Assembly (NCBI GenBank): GCA_017456005.1
Contig: JAFTLJ010000072.1
Location: 74,372-138,371 of the forward strand
Reading direction: 5' to 3'
Length of the DNA stretch: 64,000 nucleotides
Source: Clostridia bacterium
Lineage (GTDB): Bacteria; Bacillota; Clostridia; Oscillospirales; CAG-272
Under the pieces are notes generated by a model. That model was given only the letters and a program-made list of their open reading frames with translations. It had not been told where the DNA came from and ran no database searches. Below are positions 2,651-54,700 of this stretch, one piece after another. The number at the start of each line of letters is the position of its first letter. The stretch's first letter is position 1. A program made the translations under genes and the position numbers.

Positions 2651-5548
2651 TCAAAGCTCAATAACTATCTCATTTACGCCGTTTTCCATCATCGGGAATA
2701 CGTTTCCGCAGGGTGTGCCGTTGAACGTGCATTTCGTGTTTTCCGTAACACGCGCAAAGCCTGCGTTCTTCTTAACTCTGATATTGTAAACCGCGCCTTT
2801 TGTTATTGTGAAGCTCATATCCTCTGTGCCTTCGGGAAGCATAGGGTCTATTTTTATGCCGTCTGCCGTATAGGAAATACCGAGCATTTCAAATATTGCG
2901 AGCGTAAGCCAGCTTGCTGTGCCGGAAAGCATAGGACCAACGTTTTCGCCCGTCATAGAGTTCGTGTACTGGGTGCAGAAACGCGGGTTGCCCTTCATAA
3001 CGAAAGGATTATTCATTGTCTTATAGGGAAGTACGTTTTCCATTATACCGAAAGCGAGGTGGAGAAGGTCTTTTGCGAGTTCTTCGTCTTTAACAACTTT
3101 TGCCTGCTTGAACGCCGCTACACACGCCATCATAGCTGCGTGCTTGAATACGCCGCCGTTTTCGCGGTCGCCGCGGAAGTAAAGGCCTGTTGCAGTGCCT
3201 GTAGCAACCTTTTCAAGGTCGCACTGTGTGCAGAGAATGGGACCGTATACGGTGGAAAGATTTTCGCGAACCGTGCCGAGCATGGTTTTGATCTCTTCTT
3301 CCGTGGCAACGTCGGAAAGAAGCGCCCAGGAGAAAGAGTTGAGGAAGTAGGATCCGTCTTTTGTTTTATCTGTGCCGAGCCCGTCGCCTTTGGCACCGAG
3401 GTAGGAATATTCACCGTGGTTGATAAGTGCGCGAGCAAAGAAATTTTCTTTCCAAGCAGAAATTTGGATTTTTTCTGTGAGGTCGGCAGCTCTTGCGGAA
3501 AGCTCTGCGGCATATTCATCTCTACCCGTCGCTTTTGCAAGATCTGTGAGGTTATCATATGCAATGCGGAGAAGGAATGCGTTCATAACGCTTTCGCAAT
3601 AGTCGCTTTCAAAACGTGTGCCATAAGGAGCGCCTGTTTCTTCAAGCTGTTTTGCATATGCTTTTTCTTTGGTTTCACCGTCTATCCAATCATTATCGAG
3701 CTTGAGAGCATCGTTCCAGTCTGCACGGTCGAGAAGAGGCAAACCGTGTTTGCCGACGGAGATTTTACCGCTGTATTCAACTGTTGCCATAAGTGTATCC
3801 CAAAGCTTGCGTGTTTCTTTTGTGCCTGCAACAGGGAATTCGCTATCGAGGAACCCGAAATCGCCTGTGAGGAATACATATCTGTAAACCGCCTGTGTGA
3901 GCCAAAGAGCATCGTCGGAGCAGAAGCCCGCTTCTTTGCCTGCAAAGAAGAAGTTATGGTTTGCATAGCCCATTTTATATACATTGCCTACCCATTTGGA
4001 AAGGAGAGAGCGTGCAAGCTCGCCCTTGCCCATAGCGGCCATATAATATACGGAAGCGTACACGTCCTGAATTTCGCGGAAGCCTATTTCACGGAAGCTC
4101 TTTTGTGTCCAGGCGAAGGAGCGAGAAACAAAAGACTGATAAAGTACCTGGAAGGGGAGGTTGTTGTTAACATAGGAATCGAAGAGCACATCGCCGGTAT
4201 TAACCTTAACATAAGAGGAATATGTTTTGTAGAATTCCTTCATATTATCGAAAGCTTCATCGAAAGCGGATTCGTTTGCGTATTTTTCTGCGAACAAGCC
4301 AAATTTTTCATCGAATACCGGTGTTATATCGCCTCTGCCTGCAACTATGCCAACATAGCAATCGAGTTTTTTCTGCTTTTTGGGTTCAAGTGTAATGGTT
4401 TTGCCGAGAGCGTAGAATGGAACAACTTTCTGCGTATGTGCGCTTGTGAGGTATGCGCCGTGTTCGGGGTGTTCGAGCGTTCCTCTGCCTATAAAGTTTA
4501 TGTAGTTTTCCGTATAATCGTCGAACGCCTCGCCGTCGCAGAACATTGTGGCAAAGCGGCGTGTTTTCTTAAGGTAGAAGGGGTTGGGAATTGGGCAAAC
4601 AGCCACAGGCTTGCCGTCTTTTTTTGCAACCGCGCCTTCCCAGGTGATGCTCGCGTAAAGAATATCGTTTGTCATGGATTCGGGCGAGCAGAGTGCAAAC
4701 ATACCTGTTGTAACGACCTTGAGCTTTCTTGCTTTGTTGCCGATATTTCGTATTTCTATGCGCTGTGCTTCGACTGCATCGGGCATACCTTCTTCAAAGG
4801 GAAGAATGAAAATGGTGCGTCGGATAATAAGCCCACATTTTGTCTGGTACGTAATAACCGTATGGTTCTGAGCGTGAACGCAGAAAGCGTCCTCTATATT
4901 TTCTTCGGCATTGGCAGAGTAGAAAATCTGCTTGCCGTCTTCAAAAATATAGAATTGGCGGTTGCAAGGCTCGCCGCTATCCTCGGGAATGAGGTCGAAG
5001 CGGGAAGCTGTAACGTTAGTGTTAGCAACAGAACGGAAAGCACCCCTGCCGAAAGAGTCAAGCGAAGCTTTTGGGGTTGTGAGAAGCGGTTCGTCTGCAT
5101 CTACACGGCAACCGAGAAGCAGGTTTATATCGTAGTGTGTACCTACACGGGGCATTTTGAGGTCTATAATATGCTCGCCGTTCTCGCCGAGGTCGCCTTT
5201 TGCGCAAATCATATCCTCAAAGGAAGAAACTATAAGGTCCTTTACATTTTCGGGAATATCGTATGAATTTTTTTCTGTGCGAAGAGTAATATCTTTTCCG
5301 AAAAGTTCAAAAAGAATGCTGTCATCGGGAATGCTGTCTACAAACGCGCAAAATTCGGGAAACGAGAAAAGTCGCAGGCAGATCGGCGCGGAATAAGGAA
5401 GCCCCAAAAAGGCAACTGCGCGTGTTCTGTCGGCAGAAAGGAACTCGGCGTCAAGTACGCCGTCTTTTGCGGAAAGCGAAAAGACGTTTGAGATTTTTTC
5501 TTTGGCGGTCAAATGCTTATCTCTGGATTTTTCGTAAGTAAAATTCAT
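2651..5548 (-). CDS. GH94-family glycoside phosphorylase (cellobiose/cellodextrin/chitobiose-phosphorylase type; substrate not assignable)
   Basis: 965 aa. The motif FRGDRENGGVFKHAAMM and the C-terminal half are typical of GH94. GAGGTG SD before the ATG. Confidence 0.85.
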   Translation of the reverse strand: MNFTYEKSRDKHLTAKEKISNVFSLSAKDGVLDAEFLSADRTRAVAFLGLPYSAPICLRLFSFPEFCAFVDSIPDDSILFELFGKDITLRTEKNSYDIPENVKDLIVSSFEDMICAKGDLGENGEHIIDLKMPRVGTHYDINLLLGCRVDADEPLLTTPKASLDSFGRGAFRSVANTNVTASRFDLIPEDSGEPCNRQFYIFEDGKQIFYSANAEENIEDAFCVHAQNHTVITYQTKCGLIIRRTIFILPFEEGMPDAVEAQRIEIRNIGNKARKLKVVTTGMFALCSPESMTNDILYASITWEGAVAKKDGKPVAVCPIPNPFYLKKTRRFATMFCDGEAFDDYTENYINFIGRGTLEHPEHGAYLTSAHTQKVVPFYALGKTITLEPKKQKKLDCYVGIVAGRGDITPVFDEKFGLFAEKYANESAFDEAFDNMKEFYKTYSSYVKVNTGDVLFDSYVNNNLPFQVLYQSFVSRSFAWTQKSFREIGFREIQDVYASVYYMAAMGKGELARSLLSKWVGNVYKMGYANHNFFFAGKEAGFCSDDALWLTQAVYRYVFLTGDFGFLDSEFPVAGTKETRKLWDTLMATVEYSGKISVGKHGLPLLDRADWNDALKLDNDWIDGETKEKAYAKQLEETGAPYGTRFESDYCESVMNAFLLRIAYDNLTDLAKATGRDEYAAELSARAADLTEKIQISAWKENFFARALINHGEYSYLGAKGDGLGTDKTKDGSYFLNSFSWALLSDVATEEEIKTMLGTVRENLSTVYGPILCTQCDLEKVATGTATGLYFRGDRENGGVFKHAAMMACVAAFKQAKVVKDEELAKDLLHLAFGIMENVLPYKTMNNPFVMKGNPRFCTQYTNSMTGENVGPMLSGTASWLTLAIFEMLGISYTADGIKIDPMLPEGTEDMSFTITKGAVYNIRVKKNAGFARVTENTKCTFNGTPCGNVFPMMENGVNEIVIEL

Positions 5549-22201: not shown

Positions 22202-22230
22202 TGGACAAACCATGTGCTTTATGCTACAAT
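22202..22230 (+). promoter_or_regulatory. promoter of XRE paralogue 1
   Basis: TGGACA, 17 nt, TACAAT, followed by the conserved leader AAAATCAGAAAC. Confidence 0.55.
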
Positions 22231-22238
22231 AAAATCAG

Positions 22239-22252
22239 AAACGGTACCGCTT
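22239..22252. promoter_or_regulatory. candidate operator palindrome in the leader of XRE paralogue 1
   Basis: AAACGGTACCGCTT. The core CGGTACCG is a perfect palindrome; the 14-bp dyad has one mismatched pair. Confidence 0.4.
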
Positions 22253-22282
22253 TTAAAATAATTATTGAAAGGAAATGAAAAA

Positions 22283-23377
22283 ATGTCATTTGGAAATGTT
22301 ATAAGAAAATTACGCCGCGAGGCTGAGATGACACAGGAAGAGCTTGCGGAGCTGCTCGCAATCTCTCCGCAGGCGGTAAGCCGTTGGGAAACGGAAGCGG
22401 CTATGCCCGATATTTCGCTTTTGCCTAGGCTTGCAAATATTTTTAACGTAAGCGCAGACGAACTGCTCGAAATCAACGTGGCAAAGAACGAAGAGAAGAT
22501 AGAAGAGTTTCTAAAAAATGCAAAACGTGCGTTGCACCATGGAGATTTTCAAAAATCGGCAGAAATACTCGGTGAAGCGCACAGTATGTTTCCTCGTTCA
22601 TATAAAATAATGTATGAACTTGCAAACTCGCTTTTGTGCGTTTATTCAAGACAGGGCAAAAAGGAGTATGATGACGTAATCGCACTTTGCAAAAATCTTT
22701 TGAACAACTGTACAGATAACACTTTGCGCTACGAAGCTATGGAAACGCTGGGGCTTGCTTACCATTATGCCGGAAAAGACGAAGAAATGATAAAGCTTTC
22801 AGAGCAGATGACACCTTTTGCGTACTCAAAGGAAAGATTTATGATGTGGCGATGGGGATTTGACAGCGAAACGCTTGCAAAAAGGCAAGGTTATTTATCG
22901 GATTTGCTTCATGAATTACTGTACACATTACTACTTATTCCTAATAGCAAAAAGTATTCGCGAGAAGAAACAATACAAATATGGAAGCAGATAATTGATA
23001 TAACAGAAATTATGTTTCCGGATGGAGATTATCAGGTTTTTGCACAAATTGCGGCAACCACATGCGATTGTATAGCACGTAAATACTTACAAAACGGGGA
23101 GAAGGAAGAATGCCTTTATTGGTTCGAGCGTGCGTGCGATTATATTTTGTATTTAGATACGTATGATACCAATCCTATAAATACAGCGCCTGCGCCGCAC
23201 ACCTCTCTTGCGTTAAACGGCGCTAAGGGAAGCAGATGGATAAAAGAAAACGGACGAACAATGAGCGAAGAATACCTAAAAGCTTGGCATGAGGGCAAAG
23301 AAATGGAGAAAATAAGAGAAGAAGCGCGCTTTAAATCTATTATTGAAAGATTGAAAGAGCACGCTGTGAAGACATAA
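22283..23377 (+). CDS. XRE-family HTH regulator with a long helical-repeat (TPR-like) C-terminal domain, paralogue 1
   Basis: N-terminus MSFGNVIRKLRREAEMTQEELAELLAISPQAVSRWE. The ~300-aa helical C-domain is colinear with the protein at 43160-44230. ATG 22283 follows AAAGGAA. Confidence 0.8.
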   Translation: MSFGNVIRKLRREAEMTQEELAELLAISPQAVSRWETEAAMPDISLLPRLANIFNVSADELLEINVAKNEEKIEEFLKNAKRALHHGDFQKSAEILGEAHSMFPRSYKIMYELANSLLCVYSRQGKKEYDDVIALCKNLLNNCTDNTLRYEAMETLGLAYHYAGKDEEMIKLSEQMTPFAYSKERFMMWRWGFDSETLAKRQGYLSDLLHELLYTLLLIPNSKKYSREETIQIWKQIIDITEIMFPDGDYQVFAQIAATTCDCIARKYLQNGEKEECLYWFERACDYILYLDTYDTNPINTAPAPHTSLALNGAKGSRWIKENGRTMSEEYLKAWHEGKEMEKIREEARFKSIIERLKEHAVKT

Positions 23378-41950: not shown

Positions 41951-42374
41951 GATCAAATGCACTTTTCTTTCGCTTTCACAAAATGAGGGACTGGCTAGAA
42001 GTATAGTTTCCGGTTTTCTTTTGCCTCTCGACCCCGACGTAGAGGAACTCGCAGATCTGCGTTGTGCAGTTTCAGAAGCAGTTACAAATTGCATAGTGCA
42101 CGCATATAGAAATGGAGTAGGTAAAATTTCGCTTACACTTCGCGCATATGAAAACCGAACATTTAAAATGATAGTTGCCGACAAGGGTTGCGGTATAGCA
42201 GATGTAAAAGAAGCTAGAAAGCCTATGTTTACCACGTTGCCGGATGAAGATAGGTGTGGTATGGGATTTTCTATTATGGAAAGCTTTTCGGATAAGCTGG
42301 ATGTAAAATCAAAAGTGGGAAAGGGCACAAGGATCACACTTACAAAGAAACTTTCGTCTGCCGACGATACATAA
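41934..42374 (+). CDS. spoIIAB: anti-sigma-F factor / serine kinase SpoIIAB
   Basis: HATPase motifs EAVTNCIVHAY, DKGCGI and GMGFSIM. Overlaps spoIIAA. Confidence 0.9.
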   Translation: MKQINEIKCTFLSLSQNEGLARSIVSGFLLPLDPDVEELADLRCAVSEAVTNCIVHAYRNGVGKISLTLRAYENRTFKMIVADKGCGIADVKEARKPMFTTLPDEDRCGMGFSIMESFSDKLDVKSKVGKGTRITLTKKLSSADDT

Positions 42375-42392
42375 ATAAAAGGAGGTTATTTA

Positions 42393-43130
42393 ATGTCGGC
42401 AACAGAAGAAAAACAAAAAGGCGAACATAATCTCGGGCTTATACGAAAGTATCAAAGCGGCGATAATAAAGCACTCGAAATGCTTATAGAAGAAAATATC
42501 GGGCTTGTAAAGAATATCGCAAAACGATTTTACGGACGCGGCACAGAATACGAAGATATTGTGCAAATAGGCACTATTGGTATGATAAAAGCCGCCAAAA
42601 GCTTCGATGAAAGCTATAATACAGTGTTTTCCACCTACGCTGTACCACTTATTATAGGCGAAATACGCCGTTTTTTGCGCGATGACGGTATAATAAAAGT
42701 AAGCCGCGACGTACGCAAGAAGGGATCTGTAATACTGCACGCAAAAGAAGAATTTCAAAAGACACACCAGCGAGATCCTAAAATTTCTGAGCTTTCTGAA
42801 ATTTGCGGCTATTCAGAGGAAGAGGTGGTGTATGCTTTGGATGCATCCAGTCCTGTTTCATCGCTGCAAGAAAGTATAGGAAATGATGATAATTCTGCAA
42901 CTATAGAAGAAATGACGGCATCGGACACAAATGAAATCGAAACCGTTATAGACAATATCGCCTTGCGCGAAGCTATTTCTCATCTACCGAAAACGCAGCA
43001 ACAAATCGTGCATCTGCGTTTTTTTAAGGAGCTTTCCCAGCAGGAAACAGCAAATATTTTAGGTCTTACCCAAGTTAAGGTTTCACGCGAAGAAAAGAAA
43101 ATTTTCGCTTTTTTAAGAAAGGAATTATAA
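42393..43130 (+). CDS. sigF: sporulation sigma factor SigF
   Basis: Sigma-70 regions 2 to 4 (DIVQIGTIGMIKAAKSFD, YAVPLIIGEIRRFLRD). Position after spoIIAB. Confidence 0.9.
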   Translation: MSATEEKQKGEHNLGLIRKYQSGDNKALEMLIEENIGLVKNIAKRFYGRGTEYEDIVQIGTIGMIKAAKSFDESYNTVFSTYAVPLIIGEIRRFLRDDGIIKVSRDVRKKGSVILHAKEEFQKTHQRDPKISELSEICGYSEEEVVYALDASSPVSSLQESIGNDDNSATIEEMTASDTNEIETVIDNIALREAISHLPKTQQQIVHLRFFKELSQQETANILGLTQVKVSREEKKIFAFLRKEL

Positions 43131-43132
43131 CG

Positions 43133-43161
43133 AAAAATGCCCACAAAAGTGGGCATTTTTT
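43133..43161. terminator. bidirectional terminator between sigF and XRE paralogue 2
   Basis: AAAAATGCCCAC-AAAA-GTGGGCATTTTT. Confidence 0.85.
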
Positions 43162-44230
43162 AATATTGTGCATATTTTTCAAGCTTCTCTTTGATAGTTT
43201 TCATTTGCACGTAATCTTCAAACCTATCATAGCGAGATTTTTTTAGTTCATTTAAAAGTAAAGCGCTGTCGTTTTCGGTATAATTTTTAGAGCTTCCTTC
43301 TACATTGTCGTAACAATGATTCACGATGAATGAGGTGAAATATCCACTTTGGCGTGTATCATATTTGATTGCGTGCTCTGCAGCGGCTTCCAGATGCGAT
43401 AAAAACTCATCTTCCTTTCCGAGATTCAAGCAACAATGGGCAAGCTCTAAATGAATATTCTTGATTCTTGCGTGGTAAAAACCAAAATTTCCATCTTCAT
43501 AAAGCGCGTTAAATACAGCTATAGGGAAGTTCAAGAGCTTGATTTTTTCTTCATCGGTAAAGTTACCTTTGTTTATCATCAAGCTGACATTTAAAAATAT
43601 TTCATCTGCCATCCATTCGATATTTCCTTGGCATCTTCTTATTTTTTTATCGCCCTCTAAAATATGTGCCAAAAGTGCTTGTTTTGTCACATTGCAATCT
43701 GATGCCATAGAAGCATATTTTTGTGCATTTTTTGTGTCTTTTTTGCCGTAATGATACGTAAAGCAAAGCGTTTGTATAGCTCCATCACGGTATTGATTAT
43801 CTGTGCATTCATCCAGTATTCTTTCGCCCAGCTCTATTATCTCATCGGCGTTTTGCGTGCGGCTTTCAGCACCGAGAGCACACATTAAGAAATACATGAC
43901 TTGATAATTGTTCGGAAACTCTTTTTTAGCTTCGCGCCAAAGGGCAATACGTTCCGATGTTTTGCCTTGGTTAAAAAAAACTCCTTCTTGGGCTAAATAT
44001 TCATCAATTTTTTTCTGCTTTAGCGCCTCATTTACACCGAGAATCTCGTCTACAGTAACATTATAATATTCGGCAATCTGTGGAAGCAAAAGAATATCGG
44101 GATAACCATCTCCTCGTTCCCATTTGGAAACCGCTTGAACCGTTATGCCGAGGAAAGTAGCAAGATCTTCCTGAGTATTACCTTTATTTCTGCGCAATCT
44201 TTTAAGCTGTTGATTGAGTGTAATATTCAT
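43160..44230 (-). CDS. XRE-family HTH regulator with a helical-repeat (TPR-like) C-terminal domain, paralogue 2
   Basis: N-terminus MNITLNQQLKRLRRNKGNTQEDLATFLGITVQAVSKWERG. Colinear with 22283-23377. ATG 44230 follows GGAGAA. Confidence 0.8.
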   Translation of the reverse strand: MNITLNQQLKRLRRNKGNTQEDLATFLGITVQAVSKWERGDGYPDILLLPQIAEYYNVTVDEILGVNEALKQKKIDEYLAQEGVFFNQGKTSERIALWREAKKEFPNNYQVMYFLMCALGAESRTQNADEIIELGERILDECTDNQYRDGAIQTLCFTYHYGKKDTKNAQKYASMASDCNVTKQALLAHILEGDKKIRRCQGNIEWMADEIFLNVSLMINKGNFTDEEKIKLLNFPIAVFNALYEDGNFGFYHARIKNIHLELAHCCLNLGKEDEFLSHLEAAAEHAIKYDTRQSGYFTSFIVNHCYDNVEGSSKNYTENDSALLLNELKKSRYDRFEDYVQMKTIKEKLEKYAQY

Positions 44231-44258
44231 AACAATTCTCCTATCGTTTTCAAAAAGT

Positions 44259-44272
44259 AACAAGCGCTTGTT
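44259..44272. promoter_or_regulatory. perfect 14-bp palindrome in the leader of XRE paralogue 2 (candidate operator)
   Basis: AACAAGCGCTTGTT, immediately after the conserved AAAATCAGAA leader. Confidence 0.45.
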
Positions 44273-44280
44273 CTGATTTT

Positions 44281-44330
44281 ATTATAACAAAATAGTCATA
44301 TTGTTTCAATGACGGTATTGTTTAAATATG
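44281..44330 (-). promoter_or_regulatory. 50-nt promoter module L (promoter of XRE paralogue 2)
   Basis: Minus strand: CATATTTAAACAATACCGTCATTGAAACAATATGACTATTTTGTTATAAT (TTGAAA, 17 nt, TATAAT). Confidence 0.6.
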
Positions 44331-44373
44331 TTTTTAAAACTAAACGGGAAGTTTAAATTTTAAACAAAGGGAA

Positions 44374-44934
44374 TTACACCCCCATTTTTTTTACTCTTCT
44401 GTAAAACGTATTTGGCTTTAAATCAAGCTCTGCCATTGCTTGACGAGCAGTTATTTTATCTGCGCGCCAACGCGCACAAACTTTGCGGAACCGCTCCTCA
44501 TCCACAGCGATTGGAGTTCTTCCTTTATACTTTCCTTCGCGCTTTGCAAGTGCTATGCCTTCCGCCTGTCGTTCCAATATATATCCGCGCTCCAGTTCCG
44601 CCATTGCCGCGAATATTGTAAGCATAAATTTTCCGCTAACAGAGTCGGTATCTATATTTTCTTTTAACGAAACGAGAGCAGCGCCCTTATTTTTTATTTT
44701 TTCAACAATATCAAGTAAATCGCGAGTATTTCTCGCGAGTCGCGAAATACTTTCCACAACCACAATGTCTCCGTCTCGTATATAAGCGAGCATTTCCGCG
44801 AGCTGAGGTCTGTTTATGTTTTTACCACTTTGCTTATCTATATAAACCTTTTCTATGCCCATATTACTAAAGGCTTCTGTTTGTCTGCCTTCGTTTTGCT
44901 CCTGCGTAGATACTCTGACATAACCGATTTTCAT
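44374..44934 (-). CDS. small serine recombinase (resolvase/invertase family)
   Basis: MKIGYVRVSTQEQN catalytic serine motif, E-helix region, and C-terminal HTH (ITARQAMAELDLKPNTFYRRV). 186 aa. Confidence 0.9.
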   Translation of the reverse strand: MKIGYVRVSTQEQNEGRQTEAFSNMGIEKVYIDKQSGKNINRPQLAEMLAYIRDGDIVVVESISRLARNTRDLLDIVEKIKNKGAALVSLKENIDTDSVSGKFMLTIFAAMAELERGYILERQAEGIALAKREGKYKGRTPIAVDEERFRKVCARWRADKITARQAMAELDLKPNTFYRRVKKMGV

Positions 44935-44968
44935 TATATATCATCCTTTCGGCATATTTTATGCTTAT

Positions 44969-45018
44969 ATTATAACATATTTTTGTTTATGTATCAATAG
45001 GGTATTCAATTAAATATG
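44969..45018 (-). promoter_or_regulatory. 50-nt promoter module R (promoter of the recombinase gene), homologous to module L
   Basis: Minus strand: CATATTTAATTGAATACCCTATTGATACATAAACAAAAATATGTTATAAT (TTGATA, 17 nt, TATAAT). Confidence 0.6.
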
Positions 45019-45066
45019 AAATATTTCAAAAATAAAAATCATATTTTATTGACACATATATTTATA

Positions 45067-45094
45067 ATGTCAATAGGGTATACCCATATGACAT
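45067..45094. repeat. 28-bp imperfect palindrome, a candidate recombinase binding or crossover site
   Basis: ATGTCAATAGGGTATACCCATATGACAT. 11 of 14 dyad pairs match, and the core GGGTATACCC is perfect. Its left half repeats TCAATAGGGTAT found at 44994-45005. Confidence 0.4.
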
Positions 45095-45102
45095 ATAAAC
45101 CA

Positions 45103-45137
45103 TAAAAAAAGACGCATACATTTTGAGTGTATGCGTT
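45103..45137 (-). terminator. rho-independent terminator after khpA
   Basis: On the minus strand: ACGCATACA-CTCAAAA-TGTATGCGT, then CTTTTTTT. Confidence 0.85.
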
Positions 45138-45147
45138 TCTTTTTGCG

Positions 45148-45405
45148 TTATTCAGCATCCTGAATCTCATCTTTGATGTTAACCGTAACTTTTTTGCCGC
45201 AGTTGTTGGCTGCTGTTTTCATAAGCTGGCGGATTGCACGAGCAATTTTGCCGCGCTTGCCGATAACCTTGCCCATATCGGAAGGGGATACGGAAAGTTC
45301 AAGCGTAACGTGTTCGCCGTCTTCTTTTTCAACAATAATAATTTCTTCGGGTTTATCGACAATTGCGCGCGTAATGTTCGCAAGAGTGTCTTTAAGGTTT
45401 GTCAT
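45148..45405 (-). CDS. khpA: KH-domain RNA-binding protein KhpA (YlqC)
   Basis: About 85 aa. KH motif VIGKRGKIARAIR. Position directly after rpsP. Confidence 0.85.
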   Translation of the reverse strand: MTNLKDTLANITRAIVDKPEEIIIVEKEDGEHVTLELSVSPSDMGKVIGKRGKIARAIRQLMKTAANNCGKKVTVNIKDEIQDAE

Positions 45406-45426
45406 TAGTTAGCCACCCCGAAACGA

Positions 45427-45672
45427 TTATTCTGTAACGCCGGCCTTTTTGAGAAGAGATTTTACAGTATCTGTGGGCTGAGCACCGTTTTTGAGCCACT
45501 GCTGAGCTTTTTCTGCGTCGATTTTGATTTCAGCAGGCTCTGTGAGGGGGTTGTAGTAACCGATTTCTTCAACGAATCTGCCATCGCGAGGGAAGCGAGA
45601 GTCTGCAACAACAACGCGATAGAAAGGAGCTTTTTTAGAGCCGAGTCTTGTAAGTCTGATTTTAACTGCCAT
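45427..45672 (-). CDS. rpsP: 30S ribosomal protein S16
   Basis: [26 protein letters not shown]. Confidence 0.95.
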
Positions 45673-47444: not shown

Positions 47445-47490
47445 ATTGCCAATAACCTCATTTTTCAGTGTAAAGCAAATTACTTTACAT

Positions 47491-47597: not shown

Positions 47598-48401
47598 TTA
47601 TATTTTATAATTTTTATGAGGAGTGCCTACAAGCCCGATTTCCGAAAAATCTTTGAAATTATGGCGAATAATATAGTCTATATAAGAAATAACCATTTTC
47701 GCCGTAAGAGCATATCCTGCAGGATTCATATGACCGTGAAGGTAGAATTTTTCTTTAAAAGCTTCATCATAAACAGGACCATATTTTTTTAAATCTATAA
47801 CATATGAATTATCAAAAAATTCCGCAAGCTTATACATAAGCTCTGCATGGGCATCCTTTAAAACCTGAAGCTCGTAACGGTTATTTTCTTCGGGCATTGT
47901 CATGAAGAAAAATTTTGCATCGGGGCTTATCTTCTTTAGGCGCTGAACGATCATTGCGTAATATCCTGCAAATGTCGGTGCATTCTTTGTATAGTCATCT
48001 ATACATATATCATCTATAGAACCAACAGGCTGTCGAGCATTGAGAAGGTCGTTTACGCCAAGAGCTATTATATAAGCTTTGCATTTGTATTCTGTCTTCC
48101 AGAAATCTTTTTCGTCTGCGAAAGTAGACATATATTCCTTTGCGGTCATTCCACCACGAGAAAAGTTATAAACTGTGGTGCCTGTGGCACGAGCGAGGAA
48201 CTGTCCCCAAGAATAGTCGTAATAGTCGTGGTAATGACGCGTTCCGTCCATATCCATAGTTTCAAACTCTCCGGAAGAAAGGCTGTCGCCAACGCAGCCT
48301 ATGGTGCGTAGTATTCCGCAGAATCCGCCATCTTCAATTATACGTTCCAATGGTTTTTCTTCGGCATTATCGATCGTTTTTATAAATGAATTGATATCCA
48401 T
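47598..48401 (-). CDS. SGNH/GDSL-family hydrolase
   Basis: Block I GDSLSSG, block III GVND-like ALGVNDL, and a C-terminal DxxH-like LHGHM. ATG 48401 follows AGGAG; the longer ORF-track form would run through its own promoter. Confidence 0.75.
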   Translation of the reverse strand: MDINSFIKTIDNAEEKPLERIIEDGGFCGILRTIGCVGDSLSSGEFETMDMDGTRHYHDYYDYSWGQFLARATGTTVYNFSRGGMTAKEYMSTFADEKDFWKTEYKCKAYIIALGVNDLLNARQPVGSIDDICIDDYTKNAPTFAGYYAMIVQRLKKISPDAKFFFMTMPEENNRYELQVLKDAHAELMYKLAEFFDNSYVIDLKKYGPVYDEAFKEKFYLHGHMNPAGYALTAKMVISYIDYIIRHNFKDFSEIGLVGTPHKNYKI

Positions 48402-48434
48402 AAAATCATCTCCTAAAAAATCATTTCTAAAAAT

Positions 48435-48463
48435 ATTATAAGATATAGAAAGATTTCGGTCAA
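48435..48463 (-). promoter_or_regulatory. sigma-A promoter of the SGNH hydrolase gene
   Basis: On the minus strand: TTGACC, 17 nt, TATAAT. Confidence 0.6.
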
Positions 48464-48641
48464 GTAATTTCTTAAAATAATTCTTTAAAATGATGTGGAG
48501 TTCATTTTTTCTAAAAATAATGGGAAAATACGATGTTTTCAAAATACTTGATTTAAGCGCCTGCAAGCGATGTTAAGTTTTTGGATAGATAAATGTATGG
48601 CAGATATATGTTGCGTGGATTTTTCCAATTTTTCATTCCCT

Positions 48642-48673
48642 CAATTATACAAAATTTTCATTTTGTATAATTG
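48642..48673. other. perfect 13-bp-stem hairpin in an unannotated AT-rich spacer
   Basis: CAATTATACAAAA-TTTTCA-TTTTGTATAATTG. Confidence 0.5.
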
Positions 48674-48868
48674 CCTATATTTTTTCTTGGAGGCACATAA
48701 AACCATGGCTTACGCATAAATAATATATGCCTCCGCATTTGTTCAGTATCCCCTATTCTCTCCGTTTAAAATTCTCAATATTTTTTGTAAAAACAAGGTT
48801 GGGTACATTTTTATAAATTATATTAGGAATTTAAGATAAGAAATGGTTAAGCTACGACTGTTGCCTAC

Positions 48869-49330
48869 TTAATCATTGTCATATTTAAATTTTTCAACAA
48901 AGAGATTATATTTTTTCGAAATTTCAGTAATTTGTTTTAATGTTAGTTCACAAGCTAGATACATATAAAAATCATAACCTGTTTTCCAAATAAATTCATT
49001 TGAATAAAGCTTTCCCCAACATTTTTCACGAAGACAATCGGCAGCAAAGGTAATAGCTTTTTCGTTATTCAAAATCTCATTATCTTGCCAATCAAGATTC
49101 TCTTCATATTTTTCTAAACATAAGATTTTAAGTTTGTCTATTTTCAATAGTTTAAATATATGAACAAGCATTTCGATATAATTCGATTCTATTTTCATAT
49201 ACTCCGGATAATCAAACTCTTTACCATTATATATTTTACCTATATCACTGTAAGCTGTCCATTCATCAATGGTATATATATTGTTTTTTCTATATTCGGA
49301 ATTATATTTTGAAATACGGTAATAGTTCAT
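48869..49330 (-). CDS. hypothetical protein (153 aa, AT-rich gene)
   Basis: ATG 49330 lies 8 nt after GGAGG. No recognised domain. Confidence 0.5.
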   Translation of the reverse strand: MNYYRISKYNSEYRKNNIYTIDEWTAYSDIGKIYNGKEFDYPEYMKIESNYIEMLVHIFKLLKIDKLKILCLEKYEENLDWQDNEILNNEKAITFAADCLREKCWGKLYSNEFIWKTGYDFYMYLACELTLKQITEISKKYNLFVEKFKYDND

Positions 49331-49397
49331 ATAAAAAACCTCCATGCTTAAAAAACAAAGAGACAGAGAAAGTTTGGTCCCTGTCCCTTTATACAAG

Positions 49398-49691
49398 TTA
49401 TTTTGCGGATGCAAGAGCGCGTTCGAGCCATATCATACCGATATCGAGCGCATCGTAAAGCCCGGATTTTTCCCCTTGCTTAATGATTTTGTTCTTCTCT
49501 TCCGTAGAAAGTATCTGGACGAGAATTTTATCGGGTACTTCAGCACCACCGACCTTTTTGTTTGTAAGTATCATCAAGAAAAGATAATATTTATCTTCCA
49601 TATTACCATAGCAGATAATATTTTTTTCTCGTACTAAGGGTTTGCCTTTAAAAGTAATATATTTTCCCTGAAACGGTATTTTTGTTTCCAT
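49398..49691 (-). CDS. small hypothetical protein (97 aa)
   Basis: ATG follows GAGAGG. It sits downstream of divIC in the same orientation. Confidence 0.55.
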   Translation of the reverse strand: METKIPFQGKYITFKGKPLVREKNIICYGNMEDKYYLFLMILTNKKVGGAEVPDKILVQILSTEEKNKIIKQGEKSGLYDALDIGMIWLERALASAK

Positions 49692-49769
49692 AATTTTTGT
49701 AACCTCTCTTTAATTTATATTTTAAAGCTGTTAAACAGCCGTTATGTGCTTATAATAATATCCTAAAAT

Positions 49770-50072
49770 TTAATTGCTTTTCTTAAATACGATTTCACCT
49801 GTTTTATGAAACCCGAGTTGCTCTCTGGCATACTTTTCGATATATTCCTTTTCGGAAAGCGTGAAATCATATTTTAATTCGTCAACCTCATCTCGGTAAA
49901 GCTTTACGGTAGCCGCCAGTATTGCTTTTTGCTCGTTTAAAGTTTTTATTTGAGTTTTTAACGCAAAAATTGTTGCTGCCAAACAAAACAATACGACAAC
50001 GGCAATAATAACTTTAATGGATATTCTTTTAGTTTTTTGAAATTTTAGTTTCTCAAATATCATTCTGAACAA
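49770..50072 (-). CDS. septum formation initiator (FtsB/DivIC family)
   Basis: N-terminal TM followed by a coiled coil. The C-terminal ARE.LG...GE pattern and the position after yabQ fit the family. Confidence 0.8.
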   Translation of the reverse strand: MFRMIFEKLKFQKTKRISIKVIIAVVVLFCLAATIFALKTQIKTLNEQKAILAATVKLYRDEVDELKYDFTLSEKEYIEKYAREQLGFHKTGEIVFKKSN

Positions 50073-50677
50073 AATCCTTTTTTTGATTTATCCAATATTA
50101 AATAGATGCGTTTTCTTGAATATTCTTTTGCACGTTTTGCTTTTATGGCATTTGCTACAGGAAAAACTGTTATACGCATTATAAAGCAGAATATCTTTTC
50201 CAATATAAGAAAAATTATCTTTATAGGATATATTATAATATAAAACGCCCAATAAAGCAAGCACCGCAGCAAAAATATAATCCTTACAGAAAAATATATC
50301 GTTAACTTTCCTAATGTAAAAAAATAAACCGCCGCACCTAAAAAAGTAAATATTATAAAGTATAACCGTACAGATCCGCCGTTTATATGATATAAAAACA
50401 GTACTTCACAAATTGATGCTATTATCCAAAAAGTTATATCTTCGCAAAAAGTAATAAGATTATTTGAAAATTTAATTATATCGAAAAAAAGACGTTTATT
50501 TTTAAATGTCCTATTCTGCGGTATTTTTATGAATTCATAAAATTTGCCTTTCGGCATTAAATAAGGCAAACGTGATATACGCAAAACGCGAAATACATCG
50601 TATAAAATCCCCAAAAATATACCAAGCAATACCGCCAATAAAAATGCGGAATATCGGCCGTAAAACGCGTTTATCAT
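50060..50677 (-). CDS. yabQ: spore cortex biosynthesis protein YabQ
   Basis: Polytopic membrane protein with GIFLGILYDVFRVLR. Overlaps yabP and divIC. Confidence 0.8.
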   Translation of the reverse strand: MINAFYGRYSAFLLAVLLGIFLGILYDVFRVLRISRLPYLMPKGKFYEFIKIPQNRTFKNKRLFFDIIKFSNNLITFCEDITFWIIASICEVLFLYHINGGSVRLYFIIFTFLGAAVYFFTLGKLTIYFSVRIIFLLRCLLYWAFYIIIYPIKIIFLILEKIFCFIMRITVFPVANAIKAKRAKEYSRKRIYLILDKSKKGFCSE

Positions 50678-50952
50678 CGGAACATTCTCGCAAAAAACCC
50701 GCTTTTCTGCGCTTGTATTTTATCGTGGTAAGATATATTATCCACTTTTCCATCCACTATCATAGTGCCGCTTGCCACGTTCATACTGATAATATGCAGC
50801 TCACTGCCGCCTATTTCCAATGTGCCGTCTGTCGTATTTAAAAATATAGAATTTTCATCAGAACTTATAATGTCGCAAACACCGGATATATTAAGCTCGG
50901 CTCTGTTTCGCAGAATAAGTTCGGTAGTGTTTTTTTCTTTTGTTTGTTCCAT
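50674..50952 (-). CDS. yabP: sporulation protein YabP
   Basis: L.LRNR..L.ISGV.D..S.DE..I.L.T..G.L.I.G..LHI pattern. Confidence 0.9.
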   Translation of the reverse strand: MEQTKEKNTTELILRNRAELNISGVCDIISSDENSIFLNTTDGTLEIGGSELHIISMNVASGTMIVDGKVDNISYHDKIQAQKSGFFARMFR

Positions 50953-51012
50953 ATCTTTTCTCCTGTTATATAAAAACTATTGATAAAAGATATGAAGTTT
51001 TTTTAAAAAATA

Positions 51013-51258
51013 TTACTGTTCCAATACCTCAAAAAGGCTGGAAGCTTCGTTTTTTAACGTGTGTTCCTTTATATCCGTTACTCTAACTCGGAGAGTTTTT
51101 TCTCCAAATGTAATTTCTATAATATCGCCGATTTTAACATCGTAGGAAGCCTTGGCTTCTCTGCCATTGACTCTAACGTGTTCGGAATCACATGCATTGT
51201 TTGCTACCGTGCGCCGTTTTATAATACGGGCCACCTTTAAATATTTATCGAGTCGCAT
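51013..51258 (-). CDS. rqcP: S4-domain RNA-binding protein RqcP/YabO
   Basis: MRLDKYLKVARIIKRRTVA...VNGREAKAS.DVK.GD is very close to B. subtilis YabO as I recall it. Start at ATG 51258. Confidence 0.85.
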   Translation of the reverse strand: MRLDKYLKVARIIKRRTVANNACDSEHVRVNGREAKASYDVKIGDIIEITFGEKTLRVRVTDIKEHTLKNEASSLFEVLEQ

Positions 51259-51279
51259 ATCCTTTAAACCTTTCAAGTG

Positions 51280-51312
51280 GGAAAAAAGAGAGCCGCTAAA
51301 AGCTGCGGCTCT
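51280..51312 (-). terminator. terminator after hup
   Basis: On the minus strand: AGAGCCGC-8 nt-GCGGCTCT, then CTTTTTT. Confidence 0.8.
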
Positions 51313-51324
51313 GCTTTTTAATAA

Positions 51325-51600
51325 TTACTTATTAACCGATTCTTTAAGCGCTTTGCTTGCGGAAAATGCGGGGTATTTTGCCGCGGGGATTGTAATTTTT
51401 TCTTTTGTTTTTGGGTTTCTGCCTGTTCTTTCCGCCCTCTGTTTAACGTCAAAAGAGCCAAGACCGGAAATTTGAACTTTTTCGCCGTCTGCAAGTGCTT
51501 GTTCTATGGAAGCTATAAAAGCAGTAACGACAACATCTACGTCTTTCTTTTTCATGCCCGTAGATTTAACAACGTTTTCTATTAAATCTGTTTTATTCAT
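51325..51600 (-). CDS. hup: HU-family DNA-binding protein
   Basis: MNKTDLIENV...GFGSF-like GLGSFDVKQRAERTGRNPKT. Confidence 0.95.
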   Translation of the reverse strand: MNKTDLIENVVKSTGMKKKDVDVVVTAFIASIEQALADGEKVQISGLGSFDVKQRAERTGRNPKTKEKITIPAAKYPAFSASKALKESVNK

Positions 51601-51763
51601 AGTAAAGTTCCTTTCAAAACATAAAATTTCATATATATTCTAATATAAAAATACTACTGAAATAAGTATAACACCATTTTAGTATTTTTACAATAGTTTT
51701 ATATAATTTTCCCAAAAAACAAGAAAAAAATATCTTATTTATGTTATTAAACACAATAGAAAA

Positions 51764-54700
51764 TTAAAACAGTGACATCTGGCTCGTTTCGGAAAGACCA
51801 TCAAGCGCGCCGTTATTTTGTAAAATTTCTATAACTGCTTTGGAAATGCCTGTGCGCTCTCGCAAGTCTTCCACAGAAAGGTATTCTCCACCCGGGCGAG
51901 AATCTACAATACTTTGTGCTGCTGCATCTCCGAGACCGGAAAGCGAGGAAAAAGGCAAGCGTATTTTGCCATCTTCGGTCAGATAATATTTAGCATCTGA
52001 TTTATATATATCAACAGGTAAAAATTTAAATCCACGTGCTAAATATTCGTATGCCATAAGCATGGCCGAGTACGTTTCATTATCCTTCTGCGTAGCTTCT
52101 TTCCCTTTTGCCTTTATTTCTTCCATCGTTTGCAAAATAGCGTCTTTTCCGCGCATAGCAAGTTCTCCGTCGAAACCGCCGGGTGCAGCACTCCAATAGC
52201 CTGCATAGAAGGCAAGGGGCATATGAACCTTATACCAGCCTATTCGTATAGCGCTCATTACATAAGCCGCCGCATGTGCTTTCGGGAACATATACTTGAT
52301 TTTTTTACAAGAATCTATATACCAATCGGGAACCCCTTCAGCTCGCATTTCAGCTTCAAATTCTGGTGTAAGCCCTTTTCCTTTTCGCACCATTTCCATT
52401 ATCTTGAATGCGTGGCTTTTTTCGACGCCGTATCGTATCAGCGCAAGCATAATGTCATCGCGTGTTCCTATAACGGTGGAAATTGTACACGTACCTTTAC
52501 GAATAAGTTCGCTTGCATTTCCTAGCCATACGTCTGTACCGTGCGAAAGCCCTGAAATCTGCAAAAGATCTGCAAAATTTTTAGGTTTTGTATCTTCAAG
52601 CATCTGCATAACAAATTTTGTGCCAAATTCGGGTATGCCGAGTGTGCCGAATTTTACCCCAATGGGTGTAAGGTCGCAACCGAGAATTTCGGAAGATTCA
52701 AAAATTTTATATGTATCGGGGTCGTTCATAGGAACGTCGAGAACGCTTGTATCTGAAAAACGCTCTATAAGCTTATACTTTGTCGGAATATCGTGGCCAA
52801 GTTCGTCGAGCTTCAGGAGCGTATCGTGAAGATACGAGAATGTAAAATGCGTTGTTACAATATCGGAATTTGGGTCGTCCGCAGGGTGCTGAACGGGGCA
52901 AAAATCGTATATTTCGTATTCTTTCGGAACAACAACTATACCGCCGGGGTGCTGCCCTGTGGTGCGTTTTACGCCGACACAGCCTGCAATAACACGGTTT
53001 ATTTCGGATTTATTTACAGAAATATTTTTATCTTCCATATATTTCACAACAAATCCATATGCTGTTTTATCTGCAAGAGTGCCTATCGTGCCGGCTCGGA
53101 ATACGTTTTCTGCACCGAAAAGTTCTTCTGTATACTTATGAACTCTTCCCTGTACATCACCCGAAAAGTTAAGGTCTATATCGGGCGATTTATCGCCGTA
53201 GAACCCCAGAAATGTTTCGAACGGAATATCATGACCGTCGTTTACGAGTTTTTCGCCGCATTGTGGGCAGTTTTTATCGGGCAAATCAAAGCCCGAGCCA
53301 ACAGAACCATCGGTATAGAATTCAGAATAATTACATTTGGGGCAATAATAGTGTGGCGGCAAGGGGTTAACCTCTGAAATGCCGCCCATGGAGGCAACAA
53401 ACGAAGAGCCAACCGAGCCTCGCGAACCAACCAAATAACCGTTATCCTCGCTGAATTTTACAAGCTTTTGCGCTATCATATAAAGAACGGCGAACCCGTT
53501 TTTTATAATAGAGGTGAGCTCTTTGGAAAGTCTGTTTTCTACGAGCTCAGGCAAGGGATTTCCATACATACTGTGCGCTTTTTCATAGCACATTCTGTGC
53601 AGATCCTCTTCCGCTCCCTCAATATTAGGCGTAAAAGTTCCCTCGGGAAAAGGACGTATATCGCCCGAAATCATATCGGCAATTTTATTTGTATTGGTCA
53701 CTACGACTTCATATGCTTTTTCTTCGCCGAGATATTCAAATTCTTTGAGCATCTCTTCCGTTGTTCTGAAATATAAATGTATATCTCTGTCTGCATCGGA
53801 GAATTTTTGCCCCGCAAGCAAGACCTTACGGTATATTTCGTCTTCGTAATTCAGAAAATGCGCATCGCAAGTCGCAACAACGGGTTTGTCTAAAGCCTCG
53901 CCAAGCTTTATTATCGTTTTATTTATCTCTTTTAAAGTATCCTCGTTTGCTACAGTACCGTTTTCTATAAGGAATGAATTATTGCAAAGCGGCTGAATTT
54001 CCAAATAATCATAAAAATCTGCCATAGCAAGCAGGTCATCCCACTGTTTGTTTTCGAGTACGGCGCTGTAAAGCTGTCCTGCTTCACAAGCAGATCCTAT
54101 AATTATGCCCTCCCTATGAGCTTCCAAAACAGTTTTTGGAACACGAGGAACTTTTTTATAATATTCAAGGTAACCTTTTGATATAATTTTATAAAGATTT
54201 TTAAGACCTATTGCATTTTTAGCATATAAAATTATGTGGTATGTCTTGAGTGAAAGTGGGTCTGTGCTTTTGTTCATAGCAAGAGACATTTGTGCAGGGG
54301 TATATATACCTTCGCCAGCCAACTTTTCTACCATTCTATAGAAAATCTTGGCGCACATTTCGGCATCATCACTTGCTCTGTGGTGGTTAAATTCACCAAT
54401 ATTAAAATATTCAGCTATAATATTCAGTTTGTGTTTTTTGAGGTCGGGATTCGCAAAGCGCGACATGGAAACGGTGTCGAGATAGGGGTTTTCAAAAGGA
54501 ATTCCATTATCCTCCGCTACCTTGCGTATAAAACTCATATCAAACGAAGCATTATGTGCAATGAGCATCCTGCTGCCTATAAATTTAATAAAATCCGCAA
54601 CGGCTTCGCTATCTTTCGGAGCCCCTTTTACCATTCCATCTGTGATGCCGGTCAGCTTTACAATTTCCGCCGGAATAGGGGTTTCAGGGTCTACAAAGGT

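Follow-up and report, generated by a model that had tools for sequence, protein, structure and literature searches.

Is a gene for a small serine recombinase that lies between two look-alike promoters part of a genetic switch? This question is raised by a locus in contig JAFTLJ010000072.1 from a Clostridia bacterium, which we analysed over a stretch of 64 kb (the window; all positions are given on it). A first-pass annotation of this DNA had described two homologous 50-nt modules, both read on the minus strand: module R, here R1 (45018->44969), at the recombinase gene, and module L (44330->44281), at the adjacent gene for an XRE-family regulator. It offered two readings, namely that the two genes share an operator, or that the modules recombine with each other and excise the recombinase gene. 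We found that the locus is not a new genetic switch, and neither excision nor co-regulation was supported. The whole arrangement can be explained by a solitary res-resolvase cassette that lies between the terminator of the khpA operon and the promoter of the XRE gene, with R1 as the end of res and L as the XRE gene's own promoter (we put the probability of this explanation at about 0.8). In such a cassette no recombination would take place between L and R1, and nothing at the locus would act as a switch.

By its domains and its catalytic residues, the 186-aa protein is a small serine recombinase of the resolvase/invertase family. The catalytic domain (PF00239) spans residues 3-136 (E=1.4e-43). 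Among solved structures the best match was Gin (103 bits), whose residues 1-178 align with residues 1-180 of the recombinase, the C-terminal helix-turn-helix (HTH) included. Over the catalytic domain it also aligned with Sin (88 bits, the second-best solved relative), with gamma-delta (78 bits) and with Tn3 resolvase. Six residues are crucial in Tn3 resolvase, Y6, R8, S10, D36, R68 and R71 (PMC2794168), and the translation and the Gin and Sin alignments placed their equivalents at Y5, R7, S9, D33, R65 and R68 of the recombinase. The equivalent of Tn3 D67 is a serine; D67 has been reported to be non-essential in Tn3 resolvase (PMC2794168).

We further surveyed the family of this recombinase in 80 loci from reference genomes (relatives at 55-89% protein identity, with 4 kb on either side of each locus). 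A 12-2-12 palindrome (consensus TSCCRWTRGGGT-NN-ACCCYAWYGGSA) was observed in 56 distinct loci, usually 110-170 bp before the start codon, and almost all of the family loci had one full site within the surveyed distance. In the window this palindrome reads TGTCATATGGGT AT ACCCTATTGACA (site I, the presumed crossover site). It is the sole full site in 64 kb, with 21 of 24 positions matched and 15/24 for the next best. Site I is a perfect palindrome in two related lineages (L005 and L099), and the window's copy is the L005 form (TGTCAATAGGGT-AT-ACCCTATTGACA) with two mismatches. A single full site per locus would be as expected for a resolvase. Systems of the Tn3, gamma-delta and Sin type work on a pair of directly repeated res copies within one molecule (a cointegrate or multimer), and of such copies the window has one. 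An invertase acting with a distant partner was also considered and was rejected, since there is no second full site in the window and one site per family locus.

Between site I and the gene, half-sites related to the arms of site I were found at conserved distances. This accessory layout (offsets of +39, about +62 and +89/90 from site I) is seen again before the gene in about 50 distinct loci across the same range of identity. A forward half-site was present at +39 in 31 of the ~50 family loci (TGTCAATAAAAT in the window), and a central element made of outer half-site parts, TTTTGGCA-TA-TGCCAAAA, was present at about +62 in 21 loci. A reverse half-site at +89/+90, after which the start codon follows, was present in 41. 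The central element of the window is the palindrome TTATTTTTGAAA TA TTTCATATTTAA, at about +58, which is 11/12 in L005. The half-site at +90, ACCCTATTGATA, matched an arm of the window's own site I at 11 of 12 positions. The res-like region as a whole covers ~105 bp, and its symmetric accessory region is a palindrome of 64-66 bp. Site I and the accessory half-sites together would thus have the anatomy of a resolvase res, as a predicted crossover site with predicted accessory sites.

Module R1 appears to be the promoter-proximal end of this res. Its ATACCCTATTGATA, in which the -35 lies, would be the last of the accessory half-sites, and the 9-mer CATATTTAA of R1 appears to come from the central palindrome, as its decayed right arm. 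Because the outermost half-site overlaps the -35, recombinase bound at ATACCCTATTGATA would repress its own promoter, by analogy with Tn3 and gamma-delta, and autoregulation of the recombinase at R1 is likely. In the classic layout of a resolvase locus, the recombinase promoter lies inside the accessory part of res, directly before the gene. The arrangement had been thought to correspond to no described type of switch, and it is this familiar layout that we recognise in it.

Alleles that lack the recombinase were found by exact-sequence look-ups with the khpA product. In three contigs (L088, L091 and L094) the XRE gene comes directly after khpA, with an intergenic region of 170 nt and no recombinase gene. 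The khpA terminator is kept in these empty alleles and is followed by ...GAAAGTTAAACTACACCGCCATTGAAAAC...TTCTGTTATAATAAAATCAGAACAAGCGCTTGTTAC..., which is module L with its -35, extended -10 and palindrome. Since L is present in alleles without the recombinase, it appears to predate the cassette, and it exists independently of it.

Alignment with the empty alleles delimited a presence/absence segment of 735 bp that holds the res-like region and the recombinase gene. Its left edge is just outside site I, directly past the T-run of the khpA terminator, and its right edge is 9-13 nt past the recombinase stop codon, about 35 nt upstream of module L. The first-pass annotation had suggested that related genomes be compared for the ~690-bp segment between the modules; recombinase-less alleles do exist, but the variable segment is longer and its ends do not lie in the modules. 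Repeats of GTTTA bound the segment (45100-45096 and 44365-44361). These were considered as a target-site duplication, but no comparable repeat was evident in L005 or L099, and we treated them as microhomology. Integration of the cassette by a crossover at site I was likewise rejected, since no hybrid site was seen at the right end and, across 78 loci, no half-site is conserved close to the stop codon. A second, independent breakpoint was observed in L095/L096, where the recombinase is 95% identical and the homology to the window ends at the stop codon. In L095/L096 the cassette follows khpA and the XRE gene is absent; an opposite-strand gene of 327 aa with no Pfam match begins 19 nt after the stop.

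These alleles also bear on whether L and R1 are recombination substrates, such that a deletion between them removes the recombinase gene and leaves the XRE gene under a hybrid promoter, as a one-way switch. The modules are indeed direct repeats at a distance of 688 bp, the recombinase gene is the only gene between them, and natural alleles without this gene exist. However, recombination of L with R1 would keep site I and leave an intergenic region of about 229 nt, whereas the empty alleles have 170 nt, lack site I and all of res, and have their junctions outside both modules; the indel is therefore not a product of L and R1. The modules also do not have the make-up of substrates. The crossover-type site is at 45093-45068, R1 is an accessory half-site and not a crossover site, and no 12-2-12 site was found in L (the best other full-site score in 64 kb being 15/24). 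For serine recombinases, each of the two partners must have a dimer site, and the central dinucleotides must match (PMC5357621, PMC2602789). Moreover, the empty contigs are a separate lineage, diverged by ~11%, and not population variants. Together, these observations make excision between the modules extremely improbable.

As to how the empty alleles arose, the distances in housekeeping genes were 0.110 between the window and the empty lineage, 0.123-0.132 between the window and the sister clade, and 0.128-0.142 between the empty lineage and the sister clade (i.e. three near-equidistant clades). The window and the empty lineage also share the XRE-sigF junction, with 94% XRE identity. Since the clades are nearly equidistant and these features are shared, it is modestly more likely that the empty lineage lost the cassette than that the cassette was gained independently.

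Module L, in turn, is predicted to be the native promoter of the XRE gene. Just downstream of its -10 lies a perfect palindrome of 14 bp, AACAAGCGCTTGTT, which is identical in all lineages (the window, L005, L097, L099 and L088) though the XRE proteins are 51% identical. In the sister clade a second copy of AACAAGCGCTTGTT is found inside the promoter spacer. This palindrome is likely to be the operator of the XRE protein, and through it the L promoter would probably be autoregulated. When the XRE protein was compared with solved structures, the HTH part alone gave a match.

The window contains an XRE-HTH paralog with a helical domain (22203-23377, plus strand, with the paralog at 22265-23377; 370 aa, 26% identity, E=3e-37), and two such XRE paralogs were also observed in the sister lineage L099/L105. 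The promoter of the window's paralog has TG-TACAAT, followed by AATAAAATCAGAA and then by a near-palindrome of its own, AACGGTACCGCTT, and no recombinase is nearby. Because this promoter shares the -10, the leader and the palindrome layout, the -10-proximal half of L appears to be a trait of the regulator family. A general linkage of recombinase and XRE genes was considered and rejected, as an XRE homolog was nearby only in the syntenic clade and in L055 among the 80 loci. We also observed that the first ~200 nt of the XRE gene (44030-44230) are ~75% identical to L088/L091/L094, and the remainder ~97%. The sequence of L094 turns window-like part-way through the 5' part of the XRE gene, which resembles mosaic recombination.

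Why do L and R1 look alike? The letters of both 50-mers were exactly those quoted in the first-pass annotation, and each has a -35 (TTGATA in R1, TTGAAA in L), a 17-nt spacer and a TG-preceded TATAAT. As predicted sigma-A promoters they are the top two promoter-like sites in 43100-45450, with 11/12 each, and we retained the assignment of R1 to the small serine recombinase and of L to the XRE regulator. Without gaps they agree at 32/50 positions, and with gaps at 37/51 columns (72.5%), close to the three quarters claimed earlier; however, two compensating 1-nt gaps are required for the latter, and not one. The modules are in direct orientation with a start-to-start distance of 688 nt. Their alignment score of 21 was the best non-overlapping one of 7,750 pairs of TATAAT-ending 50-mers (mean -2.3, standard deviation 4.7), and it likewise ranked first among 12,711 pairs in which each 50-mer has both a -35 and a -10 (mean -5.3, standard deviation 4.7; runner-up 15), although the pair was selected after the fact and promoter elements account for ~14 of the matches. 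The resemblance is real and above chance.

The motif ATACC-N(1-3)-ATTGA occurs in three copies in 64 kb, all at this locus on the minus strand. The third copy, at 45081-45070, had been overlooked earlier; in L005 it is the right arm of site I. When the L/R1 score was compared by locus, it was 21 in the window, 18 in contigs of the same species, and 13 (L097), 8 (L099) and 6 (L005) in occupied loci that are orthologous. The L of the empty allele scored 8 against the R1 of the window. The similarity thus seems to be lineage-specific.

The resemblance may have three sources. Both modules come close to the promoter consensus, have a spacer of 17 nt and have an extended -10. In addition, the -35 consensus (A)TTGACA, when reverse-complemented, gives TGTCAAT, the outer motif of the half-site, so a strong -35 would resemble a half-site by itself. 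The third source would be the 9-mer CATATTTAA (44322-44330 and 45010-45018, minus strand), which is common to both modules in this lineage only. In L it is derived, as both other clades have GAAAGTTAA and the three substitutions all go towards R1; the CATA(T/A)TTAA of R1 is the older form, which the 95% lineage L095 has too. The CATATTTAA of L may have arisen by micro-conversion or by chance. If a short patch of L was overwritten from R1 by gene conversion in the window lineage, this would have given the extra identity (CATATTTAA and AATACC) with no functional meaning, and the age of the R1 form and the direction of 3/3 substitutions agree with it. However, the identity is patchy (9 nt, indel, 6 nt, mismatch, 5 nt) and not one continuous tract, homology so short is a poor substrate for recombination-based conversion, and a chance match of three substitutions has a probability of ~(1/3)^3. 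We consider such a conversion unlikely.

The same substitutions could be seen in another light, if the recombinase bound not only its own res but also a degenerate half-site at the -35 of L, TTTCAATGACGGT, and so coupled XRE expression to the recombinase level. The half-site look-alike does overlap the L -35, and the accessory half-sites found in the sister clade have the same TTTCAAT. No other promoter pair in the window is as similar as L and R1, and in this lineage the derived substitutions of L go towards R1. Against this, TTTCAATGACGGT matches at only 7/12 in register, and at 10/12 only with one base deleted; matches of its class number 19 in the window vs 21-40 in shuffled sequence. The empty alleles, which have no recombinase, have kept this motif (ACCGCCATTGAAAA). 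The motif in L is isolated, with no partner arm for a dimer, and the L/R1 similarity is low in the orthologous occupied loci. We therefore regard cross-regulation as improbable. The idea of a shared operator with resolvase autoregulation is in this way divided: its part on R1 stands, as R1 holds a family-conserved half-site over the -35, but its part on L fails, since the look-alike is at chance level and is kept in recombinase-less relatives.

The solitary res-resolvase cassette would then be a self-contained unit of ~735 bp, consisting of the res-like region, a predicted promoter, the gene and a putative weak terminator. We estimated the selection on it from the ratio of non-synonymous to synonymous substitution rates (dN/dS) of the recombinase, which was 0.025-0.04 against relatives of 89-95% identity. 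The window copy thus appears not to be decaying and to be under strong purifying selection. The synonymous divergence (pS) of the recombinase was 0.65-0.78, comparable to that of ffh (0.56-0.61), and this indicates that the cassette has probably co-diverged vertically at its place downstream of khpA.

Several points weigh against the reading as a solitary res-resolvase cassette. Co-variation of the accessory half-sites with the arms of site I inside a locus speaks for it (4.61 of 7 variable positions vs 4.16 +/- 0.08 when loci were shuffled, and 0 of 2000 shuffles reached the observed value), but this test takes no account of kinship among the loci. The autoregulation and the assignment of the subsites are drawn from sequence pattern and from the precedent of Tn3 and Sin. 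The L/R1 pair is the top promoter pair in the window (z ~5.6), and the three substitutions of L towards R1 would not be accounted for by promoter constraints. Lastly, a single chromosomal res has no obvious substrate.

The wider family is also at home in another setting. It comprises more than 7,800 homologs at E<=1e-20, and its members are frequent on the integrative and conjugative elements that gut Clostridia carry. Nucleotide homology between genomes typically stops 0-60 nt from the recombinase stop codon and reaches 0.5-4 kb upstream; because the shared DNA ends at the stop codon, the recombinase would be the terminal gene of a mobile block. The genes upstream are an Amidoligase_2 and class-II glutamine amidotransferase pair, a tyrosine integrase and GmrSD_N, which are typical cargo of integrative or conjugative elements. 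The conserved pair spans -2200 to -117 relative to the recombinase start. Many Oscillospiraceae copies (L029, L039, L060, L020, L051, L049 and others) have Amidoligase_2 (~370 aa) and the class-II glutamine amidotransferase (~305 aa) before res. Family members were also found on IMG/VR contigs. In one that is classified as viral (L121, IMGVR_UViG_3300029612_000065), site I at 3889-3914 is identical to that of the window (TGTCATATGGGTATACCCTATTGACA), with a recombinase 52% identical. No close plasmid relative was found by which to name the family, the best plasmid matches being ~50% identical and annotated only generically. Unlike the family members on mobile elements, the window copy is solitary among housekeeping genes.

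We also observed an orphan res-like region in L120 (3440-3570), in which a site I, TGTCACTTGGGTATACCCTATTGACA, and a half-site, TGTCAATAGGGC, lie ~85 nt apart. It adjoins a tyrosine integrase, and no serine recombinase gene was found within 3 kb of it. The site of L120 is also present in L112 and L114.

Could the solitary copy serve the host? The cassette has been kept downstream of khpA through near-saturated synonymous divergence, with a dN/dS of ~0.03 and an intact res, and on these grounds it might be a host-domesticated system rather than a dead remnant. It would act either in chromosome-dimer resolution by a serine recombinase, or in trans on mobile elements that carry a cognate orphan res (e.g. 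L120). We consider this very doubtful. The dimer-resolution option arises because res is 2 kb from a switch in GC skew and no XerCD-type dif was detectable in the 64 kb. On the plus strand the GC skew is positive to ~43 kb and negative beyond, with the change point at ~42,950, in the convergent gap between sigF and the XRE gene and 2.1 kb from site I. The coincidence of this skew flip with a convergence of gene orientation (42300-44100) suggests a probable replication terminus or a rearrangement breakpoint. One dif candidate, at 47482, proved to be the ylxM-ffh promoter. However, all known chromosome-dimer-resolution systems use tyrosine recombinases (PMC5357621). In the sister-clade contigs L105/L106, which have the same khpA-recombinase-XRE order, there is no skew switch and no change in gene orientation within 10 kb, and the empty lineage has the same convergent junction without the cassette. 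The cassette is thus not consistently at a terminus, and a dimer-resolution module at the terminus was demoted and kept at low probability for these two reasons.

The features of the locus are given in Table 1. Upstream is the housekeeping operon ylxM-ffh-rpsP-khpA, with the same synteny in L001, L005 and L099, and downstream of the XRE gene lie spoIIAA-spoIIAB-sigF in convergent orientation. The weak hairpin at the recombinase stop codon is possibly a leaky terminator; it has stronger counterparts in L095 and in other family members. No known RNA element reached the gathering score anywhere in the window, in leader or intergenic regions (the sub-threshold matches were terminators), and the window has no tRNA gene. 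No tyrosine recombinase was found among the tested open reading frames (ORFs) of ~300 aa. The stretch 48000-52000 has a GC content of 0.33 vs 0.41 overall and includes an ORF of 181 aa without a Pfam match (48869-49414, minus strand).

Table 1. Features of the recombinase locus; functions are as predicted
Feature	Position	Strand	Basis
khpA-type KH-domain gene, last of the ylxM-ffh-rpsP-khpA operon, left flank of the cassette	45148..45405	-	PF13083, E=6.6e-22
Intrinsic terminator of the khpA operon	45112..45136	-	Terminator scan; kept in occupied and empty alleles
Presence/absence segment (735 bp), res-like region and recombinase gene	44366..45100	-	Alignment with L088, L091 and L094
Site I, 12-2-12 palindrome, presumed crossover site	45068..45093	-	Family conservation
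Accessory half-site TGTCAATAAAAT, offset +39	45043..45054	-	Family layout
Central accessory palindrome, offset ~+58	45010..45035	-	Family layout
Accessory half-site ACCCTATTGATA, offset +90, overlaps recombinase -35, core of R1	44992..45003	-	Family layout
Module R1, predicted recombinase promoter	44969..45018 (-35 TTGATA 44997-44992, 17-nt spacer, TG-TATAAT 44974-44969)	-	Sequence and promoter scan
Small serine recombinase (186 aa), N-terminal catalytic domain and C-terminal HTH	44374..44934	-	PF00239
Weak hairpin over recombinase stop codon, then TTTGTTT	44369..44383	-	Terminator scan
Module L, predicted native promoter of the XRE gene	44281..44330 (-35 TTGAAA 44309-44304, 17-nt spacer, TG-TATAAT 44286-44281)	-	Promoter scan; also in empty alleles
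Perfect palindrome AACAAGCGCTTGTT (14 bp), just downstream of the L -10	44259..44272	-	Lineage comparison
XRE-family HTH regulator (356 aa), helical C-terminal domain	43160..44230	-	PF01381

The res architecture of this resolvase family had not been characterised before, and the predicted layout would define it for a large, uncharacterised family of 186-aa resolvases. The locus also offers what appears to be a clean natural case of a res-resolvase cassette that stands alone among housekeeping genes and is kept by strong purifying selection. If a host function were true, it might be the first serine-recombinase counterpart of such chromosomal systems, although the case for this is weak. A promoter-bracketed switch for excision or co-regulation does not stand, which saves follow-up effort.

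When compared with known systems, the locus resembles XerS/difSL in that a recombinase gene adjoins a single chromosomal site, here 2.1 kb from a skew switch. It differs in that the dimer-resolution systems are tyrosine recombinases (PMC5357621), that the cassette of the sister clade has no skew switch within 10 kb, and that the cassette is missing from a lineage with the same convergent junction.

Among the invertases Hin, Gin and Cin, Gin was the best solved match (103 bits, the HTH covered). The 26-bp 12-2-12 crossover geometry resembles hix/gix. However, invertases use two inverted sites around a nearby segment together with an enhancer, whereas the window has one site per locus, no inverted partner in 64 kb, and a resolvase-type accessory array.

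Sin (pI9789/Tn552) and beta (pSM19035) are, like the present protein, small serine resolvases of Firmicutes with their res (resH, six) upstream of the gene, and they resolve multimers. The res of Sin has a single accessory site with directly repeated half-sites and a spacer bound by HU/IHF (bioRxiv 10.1101/2021.12.07.471667; PMC2428073). In contrast, the accessory half-sites of the window are inverted and apparently form two accessory dimer sites, and the copy is chromosomal and solitary.

With respect to Tn3 and gamma-delta, the similarity of the protein is modest (78 bits to gamma-delta, over the catalytic domain only), and D67 is replaced by serine. Transposons of the Tn3 family have a DDE transposase and terminal inverted repeats of ~38 bp around the resolvase and res; the window's cassette has neither, and the flanks are housekeeping genes. 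A Tn3-family transposon was accordingly rejected, as khpA/rpsP/ffh and XRE/sigF flank a variable segment of just 735 bp. The res of Tn3 is 114 bp long and has three dimer sites (PMC2602789), as against ~105 bp in the window, where site I is of 26 bp with a 2-bp spacer and the accessory region is itself a palindrome of 64-66 bp. The likeness to Tn3 and gamma-delta is nevertheless seen at each level of the cassette: a small serine recombinase of ~185 aa whose catalytic domain is N-terminal and whose HTH is C-terminal, a predicted multi-subsite res directly upstream of the gene, with a crossover site of 12-bp inverted repeats and dimer-type accessory sites, and a recombinase promoter that lies within res, which would allow autoregulation.

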